Origin: Escherichia phage JS10
Length of the DNA: 64,000 nt
Sequence record: EU863409
Reading direction: 5' to 3' (one strand)
Both the position numbers and the translations under genes were made by a program. The notes beneath the pieces were generated by a model. It made no database searches, had not been told where the DNA came from, and was given only the letters and a program-made list of their open reading frames with translations. Of the stretch, positions 3,547 to 59,904 are shown piece after piece. The number at the start of each line of letters is the position of its first letter. The stretch's first letter is position 1.

Positions 3547-3566
3547 TCCGTTGTTTTGATAGGTCT

Positions 3567-3595
3567 ATAGTATCATATTCTACGAAAGAGTAAAC
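3567..3595 (-). promoter_or_regulatory. early-type promoter GTTTAC-N17-TACTAT with conserved downstream element
   Basis: Minus strand GTTTAC...TACTATAGACCTATCAAAAC; copy of a recurring motif. Confidence 0.45.
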
Positions 3596-6424: not shown

Positions 6425-6460
6425 TTTATTCTCCAATCACTCATTTGTTTTGATAGGGCT

Positions 6461-6490
6461 ATAGTATCATCACTAAAGCCCGTTGTAAAC
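6461..6490 (-). promoter_or_regulatory. early-type promoter GTTTACA-N18-TACTAT with conserved downstream element
   Basis: Minus strand GTTTACA...TACTATAGCCCTATCAAAAC upstream of 6239-6424. Confidence 0.45.
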
Positions 6491-6786: not shown

Positions 6787-6836
6787 TTTTTTGTTTCCGT
6801 TAGGTTGGGTTTGTTTTGATAGGTCTATAGTATCAT

Positions 6837-6865
6837 GCCTATAGACCTTGTAAACATCTTTTTAA
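6837..6865 (-). promoter_or_regulatory. early-type promoter GTTTACA-N17-TACTAT with 10-bp inverted repeat
   Basis: Minus strand GTTTACA AGGTCTATAG gcatgata CTATAGACCT ATCAAAAC; perfect palindrome across the -10 region. Confidence 0.45.
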
Positions 6866-10502: not shown

Positions 10503-10510
10503 TATAAATA
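10503..10510 (+). promoter_or_regulatory. late promoter box TATAAATA (gene 53)
   Basis: Exact octamer 28 bp upstream of gp53 ATG. Confidence 0.6.
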
Positions 10511-10517
10511 TTAATAT

Positions 10518-10525
10518 TATTTATA
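10518..10525 (-). promoter_or_regulatory. late promoter box TATAAATA (gene 4)
   Basis: Exact octamer on minus strand 27 bp upstream of gp4 start; divergent with the gp53 promoter. Confidence 0.6.
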
Positions 10526-20415: not shown

Positions 20416-20489
20416 CGGGGGTATCATTATCCTTTAAGCGGGAGACTTTGGAGCATCTATTTATAATAGTGCAAAGGTGTTATTACTAT

Positions 20490-20497
20490 TATAAATA
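20490..20497 (+). promoter_or_regulatory. late promoter box TATAAATA (gene 9)
   Basis: Exact octamer 27 bp upstream of gp9 ATG. Confidence 0.6.
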
Positions 20498-39306: not shown

Positions 39307-40866
39307 ATGAAAAAGAATGCATTAGTTCAAAAATGGTCCGCTCTGCTGGAAAACGAAGCTCTTCCTGAAATCGTTGGTGCTTCTAAACAAGCTATCATCG
39401 CTAAAATTTTCGAAAACCAGGAACAAGACATCCTGACTGCCCCGGAATACCGTGACGAAAAAATCTCTGAAGCATTTGGTTCTTTCCTGACCGAAGCTGA
39501 AATCGGTGGTGACCACGGTTATGATGCTACCAATATCGCAGCTGGCCAGACCTCTGGTGCTGTAACTCAGATTGGGCCGGCAGTAATGGGTATGGTTCGT
39601 CGTGCTATTCCTCATCTGATTGCTTTTGATATTTGTGGTGTTCAGCCTCTGAATAACCCTACCGGCCAGGTATTTGCACTGCGTGCAGTATACGGTAAAG
39701 ACCCTATCGCTGCTGGCGCTAAAGAAGCTTTCCACCCGATGTATGCTCCGAATGCTATGTTCTCTGGTCAGGGCGCTGCTCAGACTTTTGAAGCACTGGC
39801 TGCAGGTAAAGTTCTGGAAGTTGGTAAAATTTATTCTCACTTCTTCGAAGCTACCGGTGCTGCACACTTCCAGGCTGTTGAAGCCGTAACCGTTGATGCT
39901 GCTGCTACTGATGCCGCTAAACTGGATGTTGCCGTAACCGCTCTGTTGGAAGCTGGTCAGCTGGCTGAATTGGCTGAAGGTATGGCTACTTCTATCGCTG
40001 AACTTCAGGAAGGCTTTAACGGTTCTCAGGATAACCCGTGGAACGAAATGGGCTTCCGTATCGATAAACAAGTTATCGAAGCTAAATCCCGTCAGCTGAA
40101 AGCAAGCTACTCCATCGAACTGGCACAGGACCTTCGTGCAGTACACGGTATGGATGCAGATGCTGAACTGTCCGGTATCCTTGCTACCGAAATTATGCTC
40201 GAAATCAACCGTGAAGTTATCGATTGGATTAACTACTCTGCACAGGTTGGTAAATCTGGTATGACCAACACCGTTGGCGCTAAAGCTGGTGTGTTTGACT
40301 TCCAGGACCCGATTGATATCCGTGGTGCTCGTTGGGCCGGTGAGAGCTTTAAAGCCCTTCTGTTCCAGATTGATAAAGAAGCAGCCGAAATCGCTCGTCA
40401 GACCGGTCGTGGTGCTGGTAACTTCATCATCGCTTCCCGTAACGTAGTTAACGTACTGGCTGCAGTTGATACTTCTGTAAGTTATGCAGCTCAAGGTCTG
40501 GGTCAAGGTTTCAACGTTGACACCACTAAAGCAGTATTTGCCGGTGTTCTTGGTGGTAAATATCGCGTTTACATCGACCAGTATGCCCGTGCTGATTACT
40601 TCACCATCGGTTATAAAGGTTCCAACGAAATGGACGCAGGTATCTACTACGCTCCTTACGTTGCACTTACCCCACTGCGCGGTTCCGATCCGAAGAACTT
40701 CCAGCCGGTAATGGGCTTCAAAACTCGTTACGGTATCGGTATTAACCCGTTCGCTGACCCGTCTGCACAGGCTCCTACCAAACGTATTCAGAGCGGTATG
40801 CCTGACATCGTTAACAGCCTCGGTCTGAATGGTTACTTCCGTCGCGTTTATGTTAAAGGTATCTAA
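39307..40866 (+). CDS. 23: gp23 major capsid protein
   Basis: 519 aa (T4 about 521); paralogous to downstream gp24 copies. Confidence 0.97.
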   Translation: MKKNALVQKWSALLENEALPEIVGASKQAIIAKIFENQEQDILTAPEYRDEKISEAFGSFLTEAEIGGDHGYDATNIAAGQTSGAVTQIGPAVMGMVRRAIPHLIAFDICGVQPLNNPTGQVFALRAVYGKDPIAAGAKEAFHPMYAPNAMFSGQGAAQTFEALAAGKVLEVGKIYSHFFEATGAAHFQAVEAVTVDAAATDAAKLDVAVTALLEAGQLAELAEGMATSIAELQEGFNGSQDNPWNEMGFRIDKQVIEAKSRQLKASYSIELAQDLRAVHGMDADAELSGILATEIMLEINREVIDWINYSAQVGKSGMTNTVGAKAGVFDFQDPIDIRGARWAGESFKALLFQIDKEAAEIARQTGRGAGNFIIASRNVVNVLAAVDTSVSYAAQGLGQGFNVDTTKAVFAGVLGGKYRVYIDQYARADYFTIGYKGSNEMDAGIYYAPYVALTPLRGSDPKNFQPVMGFKTRYGIGINPFADPSAQAPTKRIQSGMPDIVNSLGLNGYFRRVYVKGI

Positions 40867-40882
40867 TACCTAACCTTATTAT

Positions 40883-40900
40883 GGGAGACTTCGGTCTCCC
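40883..40900 (+). terminator. hairpin GGGAGAC-UUCG-GUCUCCC after gene 23
   Basis: Perfect 7-bp stem with UUCG loop then T-rich tail; also flanks stop of the minus-strand gene at 40916. Confidence 0.6.
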
Positions 40901-40915
40901 ATTCTTGTTTCTGTA

Positions 40916-41182
40916 CTATGCAATCTTAACTCGACGGTTGATGATATCACGGAAGTCAATACGATTTTCTTGGATTTTCAGCCAGTTACCAGATTTGTCT
41001 TTGGTGTGGGTAGAGTATTCACCGTTCCACCAGAAGTCGGTTTCATAAGCCAGAGCTTCGTATTTCTTAACCAATGCATTAACTGCATTACCGTTAGGAT
41101 TGGTACCAAATTTTTCTACCAGAGCTTTGATGTCTTTGTCAAGGTTAGAAAGCGTGGTACGGATAAAGTTTAATTTGTTCAT
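40916..41182 (-). CDS. hypothetical protein, antisense gene between 23 and 24
   Basis: ORF on opposite strand with own early-type promoter and AGGAG SD at Met 41182 (track ORF starts 41197). Confidence 0.5.
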   Translation of the reverse strand: MNKLNFIRTTLSNLDKDIKALVEKFGTNPNGNAVNALVKKYEALAYETDFWWNGEYSTHTKDKSGNWLKIQENRIDFRDIINRRVKIA

Positions 41183-41211
41183 TTTTAATCTCCTCATGTT
41201 TTGATAGGTCT

Positions 41212-41241
41212 ATAGTAACACGTGGGAACCTTGCTGTAAAC
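41212..41241 (-). promoter_or_regulatory. early-type promoter GTTTACA-N18-TACTAT with conserved downstream element
   Basis: Minus strand GTTTACA...TACTATAGACCTATCAAAAC immediately upstream of 40916-41182. Confidence 0.45.
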
Positions 41242-41247
41242 AACTTT

Positions 41248-41255
41248 TATAAATA
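41248..41255 (+). promoter_or_regulatory. late promoter box TATAAATA (gene 24)
   Basis: Exact octamer 29 bp upstream of gp24 ATG. Confidence 0.6.
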
Positions 41256-41283
41256 AACATATACCCTCAATAAGGAAAGCGCA

Positions 41284-42567
41284 ATGGCAAAGATTAACGA
41301 ATTACTGCGCGAGTCAACAACTACTACCAGCAACTCATTGGGTCGCCCTAATCTTGTTGCTTTGACCCGTGCTACCACTAAACTAATTTATCGCGATATC
41401 ATCGCTGAACAACGTACTAGTCAGCCTATTGCTGCATTGTATGGTGTCAAATATCTTACCCCTGATAATGAATTCAGTTTCCAAACTGGTGCTGTTTATG
41501 GTGGTGAAGTTGGTTCTAAAGACCGTGAAACTATCCCGGAACTCACAGATAAAGCCCAGGCGATTGCCAAGGGTGACTACTTTAAGTATCAGAATGTGGT
41601 TTATAAGGCTCTTCAAGCAAGCCCACTCGCATCCACTAGCGCTACAGGATTGGCCGATGCTCTTCAAGAAGGTTTGGTGTCATTAACATGTCGTCTGGTT
41701 CCTGATGCAGCCCATACCACTAAATTCGAAGCGAGTAATGTAGAAATCTCTGATGCTGTATTCCAGGTTAATAAATGGAATGCTCCTGTTAAGACCCGTA
41801 AATTGAAGACTGCTTTGACTGTAGAATTGGCACAGGATATGGAATCAAATGGCTTCGACGCCCCTGCATTCTTAGAAGACCTCCTGGCTACAGTAATGGC
41901 AGATGAAATTAATAAAGACGTTCTGCAATCTCTGATAACCGTATCTAAACGCTATAAAGTTACCGGTGTATCTGATAATGGCATCATCGATTTGACTTAT
42001 GATAGTGCTCCGGAATCTGCCCGTAAACTTTATGAAATTGTCTGTGAGATGAATTCTGAAATCCAGAAAACTACTTCTTATTCTGGTACGTTTGTTGTGG
42101 CTTCAAGTCGTGTGGCTGCAATGCTTGCAGGTTCTGGCTGGTTAAAACATAGACCTGAAGATAATAATTGGCTCCCGGAAACTGCCTATGGTTATTTGTT
42201 GAATGGATTACCACTGTTCTGTGACGTTAACAGCCCATTGGATTATGTTATCGTAGGTGTTAAAGAGAACTATGGTGGTAATGAAGTTGTCGGTTCTATT
42301 TTCTATGCCCCATATACAGAAGGCCTGGATTTAGACGACCCAGAACACGTTGGTGCTTATAAGGTTATTGTCGACCCGGATTCATTACAGCCTTCTATTT
42401 CTCTGATGGTTCGTTATGCACTTTCGGCTAACCCATACACCGTAGCTAAAGACGACAAAGAAGCTCGTATTATCGACGCAACCAATATGGATTTAATGGC
42501 GGGCCAGAGTAATATGTCTTATCTGCTTGGTGTTAAACTTCCAGCAATTATTTACGAGGCTGATTAA
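41284..42567 (+). CDS. 24: gp24 capsid vertex protein, copy A
   Basis: 427 aa (T4 about 427), gp23-like fold protein downstream of 23. Confidence 0.9.
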   Translation: MAKINELLRESTTTTSNSLGRPNLVALTRATTKLIYRDIIAEQRTSQPIAALYGVKYLTPDNEFSFQTGAVYGGEVGSKDRETIPELTDKAQAIAKGDYFKYQNVVYKALQASPLASTSATGLADALQEGLVSLTCRLVPDAAHTTKFEASNVEISDAVFQVNKWNAPVKTRKLKTALTVELAQDMESNGFDAPAFLEDLLATVMADEINKDVLQSLITVSKRYKVTGVSDNGIIDLTYDSAPESARKLYEIVCEMNSEIQKTTSYSGTFVVASSRVAAMLAGSGWLKHRPEDNNWLPETAYGYLLNGLPLFCDVNSPLDYVIVGVKENYGGNEVVGSIFYAPYTEGLDLDDPEHVGAYKVIVDPDSLQPSISLMVRYALSANPYTVAKDDKEARIIDATNMDLMAGQSNMSYLLGVKLPAIIYEAD

Positions 42568-43850
42568 TGTCTAAGATTATAGACCTAATTAAAGAATCCA
42601 CATTGACGGCTGCCAACTCGGTTGGCCGTCCTGCTCTTCTTTCATACACCCAAGCAACTAATAAACGAATCTTTAAAGCCCTAGTTGCTGAACAAAAAAC
42701 AAGCCAACCTGTTGCCGCTCTGTACGGGGTTCGTGTACTTAATCCTGACGACAAAATGACTTATCTTGGTGGCGCTACATTTGCAGGCCAGATTGGTATG
42801 TCGGAACGTGAAAATATTCCTGAATTTACCGATTCGTCTACAGCTTATGCAGCCGGCGATATGTTCCAGTTTGAAAGTGTAGTGTTTAAAGTTCTAGAAG
42901 CATCTCCTTTCGCCGGAACCACAGAAACCGACCTCGGTGAAGTTATTTCTGAAGCAGTGGCCGCTGGGCATATTCGTATGGTATCAGATGCTGCTATTAC
43001 TTCTAAATTTGAACAAGGCCACCCTGAAATTGCTGAAGCAGGCTTCCGTATTGACAAATGGCAATCTGAAGTTAAATCACGTAAACTGAAAACTTCATTG
43101 ACAGTCGAATTGGCCCAAGACCTAGAATCAAACGGGTTTAATGCTCCTAATTTCGTTGAAAATCTGCTAGGCATTCAAATGGCAGAAGAAATTAATAAGG
43201 ACGTATTACAGTCATTAATTACGGTGAGTTCTCGTTTTAAAGTCCAAGGTGTTTCTGAAAAGGGCGTATTAGACCTTACCAACCCACGTTACGATAATGC
43301 CCAGGACCGTGCTCGTACATTATATTATTACATGTGTGAGATGAACTCTGCCGTCCAACGTCAAACTTCTTTCGCCGGGACTTATGCAGTAGCTAGTTCT
43401 CGTTGTGCTGCTATTCTCGCCGCTTCCGGTTGGGTTGAGAAAAAGGAAGACCAAGACGAATTGGCTTATGGTGTATTAAAGAATGGTCTGCCTCTTTATG
43501 CCGATATGAATAGTCCATGTGATTATGTTATTGTTGGTGTAAATGCTCAGATGGGTGAAGGACAGACGGTCGCATCTTTATATTATGCGCCTTATACGGA
43601 AGGTTTGGATGTGGTTGATGAAGAAGGTGATACTTCAGTAGGTGAATTTAAGGTTATTGTTGACCCAGAAAGCTTACAACCTACAGTAGCATTGCTTGCT
43701 CGTTATGCATTGACTGCAAACCCTTATACCGTCGCTAAGGACGATAAAGAAGCCCGCATTATTGATGGCTCTGATATGGACAAAATGGCTAACCAAAGCC
43801 AGTTGAGTTCTTATCTTGGTGTAAAACTTCCTCCATTGGATAAAAACTAA
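42567..43850 (+). CDS. gp24 capsid vertex protein, copy B (diverged tandem paralog)
   Basis: 427 aa, roughly half identical to copy A by eye (shared LKTxLTVELAQD, EINKDVLQSLITVS, PYTVAKDDKEARIID). Confidence 0.9.
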   Translation: MSKIIDLIKESTLTAANSVGRPALLSYTQATNKRIFKALVAEQKTSQPVAALYGVRVLNPDDKMTYLGGATFAGQIGMSERENIPEFTDSSTAYAAGDMFQFESVVFKVLEASPFAGTTETDLGEVISEAVAAGHIRMVSDAAITSKFEQGHPEIAEAGFRIDKWQSEVKSRKLKTSLTVELAQDLESNGFNAPNFVENLLGIQMAEEINKDVLQSLITVSSRFKVQGVSEKGVLDLTNPRYDNAQDRARTLYYYMCEMNSAVQRQTSFAGTYAVASSRCAAILAASGWVEKKEDQDELAYGVLKNGLPLYADMNSPCDYVIVGVNAQMGEGQTVASLYYAPYTEGLDVVDEEGDTSVGEFKVIVDPESLQPTVALLARYALTANPYTVAKDDKEARIIDGSDMDKMANQSQLSSYLGVKLPPLDKN

Positions 43851-43877: not shown

Positions 43878-44885
43878 TTATTTGGATACTAGTTCAATCC
43901 ATACAGCTCGTAGCGTATCTTTAACGCACTCAACGAGCTGCTTTTTAACTTCAACAGGGTTTTCTGCATCGGTTAATTCTAATTCTTCACGGGCTGCCTC
44001 TTCCAAAATATCTTGGACCGTCAAGCCCATTACCTTTCCAAAATCTTTAGGTGTTACTTCACCAATCTTACTGATAACGTTATTGATACGGTTAACTGTC
44101 ACATAATCTGTGAATTGCCACATCAAGTCCATATCGTCTTGGGACAATACTACTGCAGCCTTAATAGGCTTATCAGATTTTTTCTTCTCGCTGAATTTAG
44201 AGTTCTTACATTTAATCGCTACACGATTTCCATTAGGAAGCCAGATTGGAACATCAGGTTTCAGTACAAAGCCTTCAGCCGTAAATACTTTACCTTCGAC
44301 CTTAGGAATAAAATCGGTTGAGTTAGCAATGGTTAAACCTGCATTATCCACTGCAAAATTGTAATCTGGGATAACAGAATCAAAATCATTCGGCAGTTTA
44401 ATAAGGTCTTCAAAGCTACCTGTGGCTAAGCACGGAGCAACCTTAAACTTATGGATAATACAGAAAGCTTCCATAAGGGTATCAGTTAAAACGGATTCGG
44501 TGCCATCTTCTTTAGTAACACGGATATCAAATACATAAAAGTCTTTATCGCCGTAATCCACATTCTTCTGGATACCCGTACCAGCGAACTCGCCATAAAT
44601 TTGGTACGACTGATAATTAATAGATTCGATTAGATGTTGAACAGATTTAATAGAATCAGCATAGTTCTTAAGTACAATTTCATAGCCATAGAAATCTTCG
44701 GCCGGGAGAATTGGGCCAGTGCGCTTGGCGCACGTGACTGCGTCACGTTCTATGATTAAACTAAAGTTGGTTCCATGAATCTTCTCACGTGCTACCCATT
44801 CACCACCAGTCAAACCATGGGTACGGAGTTTTTCGATAAACTTACTGTTGTAATGGTTTTCCAGACTGCTATATTTCTTGAACAT
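43878..44885 (-). CDS. rnlB: RNA ligase 2
   Basis: [20 protein letters not shown]...[14 protein letters not shown] and C-terminal region match recalled T4 Rnl2; start at Met 44885. Confidence 0.95.
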
Positions 44886-44886
44886 A

Positions 44887-45255
44887 TTATTTGCTTCCAT
44901 AATCAATTTTAACTAATTTACCTTTAAGGTAACCATAATTTGAAGGTTTACAATCAGACATATACATGCTTTCTACCAGAGTGTGGTGCCTAGCATGGTG
45001 TATTTCTGTTTTCCACAACCCTATATTAGTAACTTCTTTGGCCCTTGGCATAACTATAACAAGTCCTAACCAAGATTTCCATATAACAGGACACAAATAC
45101 GGGTCCTTCAATGATGAGAATTCATGTTCTGTTATATTGCAATAGAGTCCAGTTAAAAACAGTTTCCAACTATAGAAGCTTGGTATCTTAATGGCGTATC
45201 GTTTCGTCAGGAAGACCTGCCGGGTTGCACCATTTCTTTTTCTGATAAATGGCAT
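44887..45255 (-). CDS. hypothetical protein with protein-kinase-like motifs
   Basis: 122 aa; GATRQVF...YAIK, then DCKPSN and IDYG at kinase-like spacing; too short for a full kinase; tentative. Confidence 0.45.
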
Positions 45256-49684: not shown

Positions 49685-49692
49685 TATAAATA
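49685..49692 (+). promoter_or_regulatory. late promoter box TATAAATA (uvsW)
   Basis: Exact octamer 28 bp upstream of uvsW ATG. Confidence 0.6.
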
Positions 49693-49698
49693 TAATTA

Positions 49699-49706
49699 TA
49701 TTTATA
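49699..49706 (-). promoter_or_regulatory. late promoter box TATAAATA (inh-like gene)
   Basis: Exact octamer on minus strand about 34 bp upstream of start at 49665. Confidence 0.55.
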
Positions 49707-53301: not shown

Positions 53302-53323
53302 TGTCTTCTCCTTTAAGCTTATT

Positions 53324-53331
53324 TATAAATA
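53324..53331 (+). promoter_or_regulatory. late promoter box TATAAATA (gene 51)
   Basis: Exact octamer 20 bp upstream of gp51 ATG; overlapping minus-strand octamer 53320-53327 faces gene 26. Confidence 0.55.
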
Positions 53332-59874: not shown

Positions 59875-59904
59875 ATAGTACCACATCCTTGTGGTGTTGT
59901 AAAC
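59875..59904 (-). promoter_or_regulatory. early-type promoter GTTTAC-N18-TACTAT
   Basis: Minus-strand hexamers with CCACA-nnnn-TGTGG hairpin in the spacer. Confidence 0.4.

Follow-up and report, generated by a model that had tools for sequence, protein, structure and literature searches.

Why should a small open-reading frame with an early-type promoter of its own lie on the minus strand between genes 23 and 24, two late capsid genes, of Escherichia phage JS10? This question was addressed in a window of 64,000 nucleotides (EU863409), the whole stretch of DNA analyzed here, and the features of the locus are collected in Table 1. JS10 is a JS98-like T4-type phage, JS98 being the type Dhakavirus (Straboviridae, Tevenvirinae), and 701 bases at the locus matched Escherichia phage Esco_phi_B-01 at 99% identity and JS98 at 94%. 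The late genes 23 and 24a flank the slot on the left and right, and the 417-bp gap between them holds only an 88-aa reading frame; an open-reading frame for a GIY-YIG endonuclease is absent from this gap, indicating that the unit is not a seg element. The original prediction had placed an 88-aa minus-strand ORF at this position, bounded by a GGGAGAC-UUCG-GUCUCCC hairpin after gene 23, and both were recovered, the former in the list of open-reading frames. More than 100 genomes already list the same ORF as a hypothetical protein. Downstream of the slot, genes 24a and 24b are tandem vertex-protein paralogues of 427 aa each, 57% identical and overlapping by one base; tandem gene 24 paralogues are also present in VR7 and in a metagenomic relative.

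Table 1 Features of the gene 23-24 slot and its surroundings in JS10 (EU863409), in window coordinates
Feature	Position	Strand	Basis
Gene 23, major capsid protein, 519 aa	39307-40866	+	Pfam Gp23, E 3.9e-122; gp23 in the JS98 annotation
UUCG hairpin	40881-40902	both strands fold	Terminator scan, RNA folding
88-aa ORF including stop codon	40916-41182	-	ORF list; equals JS98 orf173, phrog_6003
Ribosome-binding region GAGGAGATTAAAA	41183-41195	-	Sequence
Early-type sigma-70 promoter and leader	41197-41241	-	Motif scan, comparison with relatives
Late promoter box TATAAATA for gene 24a	41248-41255	+	Box count and conservation
Gene 24a, capsid vertex protein, 427 aa	41284-42567	+	Pfam Gp23 family, E 4e-98; JS98 24a/24b
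Gene 24b, gene 24a paralogue	42567-43850	+	JS98 annotation
rnlB	43878-44906	-	Local map

The ORF reads from an ATG at 41182-41180 to a TAG at 40918-40916, with a Shine-Dalgarno sequence, GAGGAG (41195-41190), located 7 nt before the ATG. A longer, 93-aa version starting from an in-frame ATG at 41197 was rejected, as that codon overlaps the Shine-Dalgarno sequence, has none of its own, lies about 8 nt from the predicted transcript start and is not supported by the homologues, all of which begin with MNK or MTK, that is, at the second ATG. Substitutions between the ORF and its close relatives were overwhelmingly synonymous, with dN/dS values of 0.098 against JS98, 0.046 against mobillu and 0.095 against IME08 (0.05-0.13 among close pairs) and synonymous divergence reaching saturation. 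Judged by this substitution pattern, the 88-aa ORF is a real protein-coding gene under strong purifying selection.

A homology search of the 88-aa protein, which the original prediction had proposed as a check, returned relatives, all of them from phages and none of known function. The profile of phrog_6003, a family of unknown function, was matched with an E-value of 2.2e-49, residues 1-88 aligning with positions 1-88 of 90, and homologue alignments remained full length down to 28% amino acid identity. A HMMER search of 1.84 billion representatives gave nine matches, of which only about seven were true relatives, all from T4-like or rV5-like coliphages; two of the nine (P0025 and P0026) were long repetitive proteins that aligned through their repeats, and one (P0023) resembled an assembly chimera. 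The Pfam search gave no match, the sole NCBIfam match (E 0.021) was meaningless, the search against PDB sequence profiles matched nothing but de novo helical peptides (E > 0.1), and no homologue with a named function or fold was found by Pfam, NCBIfam, PDB profiles or HMMER. An ORF at the same position was present in Dhaka-, Gapriver- and Mosigvirus as well as in metagenomic T4-like contigs, and the position between genes 23 and 24 was kept from 99% to 28% amino acid identity. In the rV5-like phages, the ORF sits among small early genes, with neighbors that are all unnamed small ORFs. Phage ABPH49 (MH533020, segment 2501-2767), labeled as an Acinetobacter phage and classified in the Vequintavirinae (rV5-like), has a 41%-identical homologue within a run of small unnamed ORFs, indicating that the family is not confined to T4-like phages.

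AlphaFold (AF2) modeled the protein with a pLDDT of 93.5 from only 19 sequences. The predicted fold consists of two long helices (residues 3-25 and 31-48), a beta-hairpin (52-71) and a C-terminal helix (77-87), and the invariant residues include an N-G-N loop between helices 1 and 2 and Q71. The protein is hydrophilic and basic, at about 10 kDa, with a pI of about 9.5 in all homologues. From the class of gene to which it belongs, it is most likely an early accessory factor that would bind a host macromolecule, for either takeover or counter-defense.

Upstream of the ORF, a scan of 40500-41600 found a single sigma-70-like site, with a -35 element GTTTACA (41241-41235), a 17-nt spacer, an extended -10 TGt (41220-41218) and a -10 element TACTAT (41217-41212), directly followed by the discriminator and leader AGACCTATCAAAACA (41211-41197). 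Read as sigma-70 hexamers, the promoter is TTTACA-17-TACTAT, with 9 of 12 consensus matches. It had been described beforehand as GTTTACA-N18-TACTAT; an early-type promoter is indeed located there, with the spacing corrected by one base to either GTTTAC-N18 or GTTTACA-N17. Transcription is predicted to start at the A near 41205, at the usual distance of 7 nt. The 25 nt upstream of the -35 element, gggtatatgtttatttataaaagtt, are 76% A+T; having to accommodate TATTTATA, this region has fewer A residues than its counterparts in the three sister copies described below. Taken together, the GTTTAC -35, the TGn, the -10 and the A/T-rich upstream region fit the T4-type early class, for which GTTTAC is the consensus -35 and which is often found in front of novel ORFs (Nolan et al. 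2006, PMC1524935), and by analogy with segD of T4 the promoter would be active in the first minutes of infection.

The original prediction had also included a conserved element downstream of this promoter, and this was confirmed by the 21-mer TACTATAGMCCTATCAAAACA, which occurs four times in the 64-kb window, each time on the minus strand (3552, 6446, 6812 and 41197), with none expected from 100 shuffles. The three other copies each stand in front of a leftward group of small ORFs at 3-7 kb. These further copies of the promoter with its leader, in the form GTTTAC-N17/18-TACTATAGMCCTATCAAAACA, span 3552-3595, 6446-6490 and 6812-6855 on the minus strand, and a fourth further promoter, at 59875-59904, has the same -35 and -10 elements with a related leader (…CACAAACATGAGGAG). 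Other promoter types were tried for the ORF and rejected: no TGCTT box of a middle (MotA) promoter was found upstream of it on the minus strand, a plus-strand TTGCTGTAA overlapping the -35 element had no TAnnnT at the correct spacing for a MotA site, and the nearest upstream minus-strand TATAAATA that could provide a late promoter was at 49699, about 8.5 kb away. The Shine-Dalgarno stretch GGAGATTAAAA fits the RegB cleavage consensus GGAGRAYARAA, in which RegB cleaves at GGAG (PMC3014915), at 10 of 11 positions. A relaxed form of the RegB pattern was found only at the ORF and behind the early promoter at 6490, a count that is not significant by itself.

On the opposite strand, the late box TATAAATA lies 6 nt from the -35 element, in agreement with the 6 bp given in the original prediction, and 28 nt before the ATG of gene 24a, a distance that falls within the placement of T4 late promoters (about 20-30 nt) and would suit such a promoter. 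The window contains 19 TATAAATA boxes compared to 8.1 expected, and no shuffle reached 19. Pairs of TATAAATA boxes on both strands, 4-40 nt apart, were also observed at 10503-10525, 20458-20497, 49685-49706 and 53320-53331 and look like divergent late promoter pairs. Relative to the divergent early promoter, the box in the slot falls at about -43 to -50, within the A/T-rich upstream region of that promoter. The control region of about 100 bp could be aligned among Dhakavirus (JS98, IME08), Gaprivervirus (VR7), Mosigvirus (TU01, mobillu) and T4. The box is invariant in JS98, IME08, mobillu, VR7, TU01 and T4, and the arrangement TGTAAAC-6 nt-TATAAATA is invariant in the first five; the T4 counterpart is TGTAAAT-5 nt-TATAAATA, with TTTACA-17-TGaTATTAT before segD. 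The -35 element is thus invariant in the five relatives and differs by one base in T4; each of these phages also has a -10 element, VR7 having GTTTAC-18-CATAAT and a different leader. These alignments indicate that a back-to-back pair of putative early and late promoters has been conserved over four genera. Because they point away from each other, these promoters would give transcripts with no overlap.

The hairpin after gene 23, with arms ATGGGAGAC and GTCTCCCAT around TTCG (right arm GUCUCCCAU as RNA), has a 9-bp stem and a UUCG loop and is the only inverted repeat in the 431 bases of 40860-41290. On the plus strand, it has a folding energy of -15.4 kcal/mol (z -3.4) and a U-rich tail, TCTTGTTTCT / UCUUGUUUCU, and thus has the features of an intrinsic (Rho-independent) terminator after gene 23; the terminator scan reports the plus strand only. 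The minus strand folds at -19.6 kcal/mol (z -4.8) for a 76-nt segment that includes a second hairpin, and the stem is followed there by AUAAUAAGG, with no U-run of the kind found in an intrinsic terminator, which makes the hairpin uncertain as the end of the early transcript. The stem is kept by compensatory changes, to GGGACC/GGTCCC in VR7 and GGGAACC/GGTTCCC in T4. A search of Rfam gave only a sub-threshold chance match to a snoRNA, inside gene 23.

The slot of T4 offers the closest comparison. A minus-strand gene occupies the same position and orientation there, with a homologous control region in which a sigma-70-like promoter stands back-to-back with the TATAAATA box of gene 24, and with a homologous UUCG hairpin. 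The gene itself differs, T4 having the GIY-YIG endonuclease segD and no homologue of the 88-aa protein among the tblastn matches, and JS10 having the small ORF without segD; the slots of IME08, mobillu, F2 and JK45 contain both. In T4 (NC_000866, 107239-107296), TTTACA-17-TGaTATTAT precedes segD on the segD strand and is homologous to the JS10 promoter. According to a 2010 review, a promoter specific to segD could not be recognized, and very low expression was to be expected (PMC2988022). Later, time-resolved transcript and protein data list T4 segD as early RNA and middle protein, in an early class that is lenient (215 genes) and of unconfirmed strand specificity (PMC9697503 supplements). The promoter sequence and the report of segD as early RNA together argue that the JS10 gene would also be early. 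The original prediction of early antisense transcription over a late-gene junction is retained for the opposite-strand gene and its early-type promoter and modified for the antisense character of the RNA, since the small mRNA would lie in the intergenic gap and would not overlap a late coding sequence without read-through of the hairpin, making "antisense" a matter of orientation only. This layout is the standard one for the gene 23-24 slot in T-even phages and is not unusual.

Not all copies of the gene are whole. In RB69 (NC_004928, segment 6292-6532, minus strand), RB69ORF188c and RB69ORF189c, annotated as 41 and 29 aa, are the halves of a frameshifted 89-aa gene of the TU01 type, and the early promoter before them is intact. 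The two share the slot and the promoter with the JS10 ORF and are jointly the Mosigvirus-type allele of the same gene, which is split by frameshifts in RB69 but intact in JS10. Shortened versions of 51-64 aa also exist, and these together with the RB69 frameshift suggest that the gene is dispensable in the laboratory.

Exchange at this locus was seen on comparing two Mosigvirus members, mobillu and TU01. Identity between them reaches 98.7% in gene 23 and 98.8% in gene 24 and is 92% across the control region, yet it falls to 48% in the ORF. The ORF of mobillu is much closer to that of JS10, at 95% identity in DNA and 99% in protein, compared to 68-82% in the flanks. Site-by-site comparison placed the crossovers in mobillu at about 41206-41212 (-10 element and leader) and within the final ~25 nt of gene 23. 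Comparison of mobillu segment 2401-3530 with TU01 and with JS10 40840-41215 outlines a tract of about 1.1 kb, comprising the gene 23 end, the hairpin, segD, the Dhakavirus-type ORF and the leader, that replaced the resident Mosigvirus allele. In mobillu, segD lies exactly between the stop codon of the ORF and the hairpin, and an ORF-segD pair is also present in IME08 (Dhakavirus), in F2 and JK45 (Tequatrovirus) and in LF82-1. As judged from these alignments, the exchange fits either recombination at conserved regulatory sequences, as in the PeSL cassettes considered below, or co-conversion driven by the endonuclease. At JS10 40903-40925, the stretch CTATGCAATC at the 3′ end of the ORF, next to the hairpin, looks similar to the one that closes segD at the same position in IME08 (TTATAGCAATC, segment 3218-3240), a likeness that may mark a former segD since lost or else an insertion junction common to both.

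Among known units, the promoter-early stem-loop (PeSL) cassettes of RB49/phi1-type phages (Arbiol et al. 2010, PMC2839356; Comeau et al. 2014, PMC4122927) resemble the JS10 unit in having a repeated, strong early promoter motif before an orphan ORF, an insulating stem-loop and ORF swaps through the motif. The role of the motif in recombination is matched in JS10 by the four copies of the 21-mer, with none expected, and by the mobillu crossover within it. A stem-loop at the promoter was not found, as the promoter region folded no more stably than its shuffles (z +1.15) and no inverted repeat was present in 40903-41290, and with a promoter motif but no stem-loop the JS10 unit is not a strict PeSL. 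It differs further in that its only hairpin is the terminator of gene 23 at the far end of the ORF, its -35 belongs to the GTTTAC type of T-even phages and not to the TTGACA type, it stands alone inside a late structural block instead of in a hyperplastic region, and the other crossover of its exchange is inside gene 23. Novel ORFs of T4-like phages with early promoters of their own (PMC1524935) and the "morons" of lambdoid phages are similar in being single accessory genes with their own promoter and terminator, flanked by two conserved genes from another transcription unit; the JS10 ORF is opposite to its neighbors, whereas the novel ORFs of Nolan et al. 2006 (PMC1524935) are almost always co-oriented. 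The finding is, in sum, real and the original prediction largely right, and the unit is of a known kind, an orphan early gene with its own promoter.

We read the locus as a self-contained cassette for an early accessory gene, lodged between genes 23 and 24 of a JS98-like T-even phage, a reading to which we give a probability of roughly three in four. The strongest competitor, though itself unlikely, is that the ORF is carried by the segD homing element or assists it, the two forming one mobile operon to which the ORF would give a promoter and translational coupling, with alleles lacking segD being remnants after its loss. In IME08, mobillu, F2, JK45 and LF82-1, the Dhakavirus-type allele (98.6-100% amino acid identity over residues 1-72) is 3 nt upstream of segD, the SegD proteins of mobillu and IME08 are 88% identical, and the converted tract of mobillu enters the gene 23 end like a co-conversion tract. 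The resemblance, over 10 nt (CTATGCAATC), of the ORF 3′ end to the segD 3′ end beside the hairpin may point the same way. Against these observations, most carriers of the ORF have no segD (JS10, JS98, VR7, TU01 and the P0019 contig), alleles at only 28-35% identity keep the same position without it, T4 has segD and no ORF, and no endonuclease was called beside the ORF in the rV5-like phages. A further and less probable reading is that the slot is a dedicated exchange site, with the early promoter and leader on one side and the gene 23 end and terminator on the other acting as linkers between which a counter-defense gene, with or without segD, would be swapped between genera, and with the leftward promoter also giving an anti-gene 23 RNA that would silence the major capsid protein early. 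The major capsid protein is a known trigger of abortive-infection systems.

That RNA could also be the main functional product, early read-through past the hairpin giving an "anti-late" antisense to gene 23 that would damp premature or leaky capsid synthesis and leave the ORF secondary, which we consider very unlikely. Read-through is plausible given the minus-strand hairpin without a U-tract, the divergent promoter persists in RB69, with its broken ORF, and in T4, with segD in place of the ORF, and RNA made early and complementary to late T4 genes is known from work of the 1970s, which we count in favor; a search of one literature collection on "anti-late RNA" found nothing. Strong purifying selection and a confident fold argue, however, that the protein matters. 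Early promoters are silenced minutes ahead of the first gene 23 mRNA, read-through RNA that is not translated is the kind on which Rho typically acts, and in phages with segD the distance from the promoter to gene 23 is increased by about 680 nt with no change in the promoter. Least probable is that a long spacer between genes happens to contain an open frame by chance, with a promoter-like sequence that is not used. The lack of a named homologue would agree with this, but a chance frame is contradicted by the dN/dS values and the saturated synonymous divergence, by full-length conservation to 28% identity and the pLDDT of 93.5, by a Shine-Dalgarno sequence at the ideal distance, and by a promoter cassette found four times where none was expected; the substitution pattern has effectively ruled it out already.

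As a self-contained early accessory-gene cassette, the locus would function through its control region of about 100 bp (41183-41283), in which the two divergent promoters would be used at different times. Host sigma-70 polymerase, still unmodified in the first minutes of infection, would start at TTTACA-17-TGtTACTAT and produce a leftward mRNA of about 325 nt, comprising a 23-nt leader, the GAGGAG Shine-Dalgarno sequence and 88 codons, which the gene 23 hairpin would end or stabilize; any read-through into antisense gene 23 would be untranslated and probably shortened by Rho. Shut-off may proceed as in T4, where roles in this process are assigned to Alt/ModA and AsiA, and to RegB (PMC2988021, PMC3014915): AsiA would block recognition of the -35 element, ADP-ribosylated alpha subunits would lose their upstream A/T contacts, and RegB would probably cleave the mRNA of the small ORF at the GGAG of its Shine-Dalgarno sequence. 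Late in infection, a gp55/gp33/gp45-dependent polymerase would start at TATAAATA and transcribe gene 24 rightward, and the same hairpin would end the gene 23 transcripts. The cassette would move between genera via recombination in the conserved flanking sequences.

The finding leaves the current understanding of T4-type gene regulation unchanged, and, since its relatives share the arrangement, JS10 presents an ordinary though tidy case of how T4-like phages store accessory genes. The case is a compact one, in that a region of about 100 bp would time two opposed T-even genes, with the late TATAAATA box placed within the early upstream region. Comparison of the slots also identified a sigma-70-like promoter before T4 segD that had been overlooked until now. 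The locus documents swaps of accessory genes between genera at conserved regulatory sequences, and the small, well-folded and constrained protein family that it carries, with no known fold relative, is a reasonable candidate for host-takeover and anti-defense screens.
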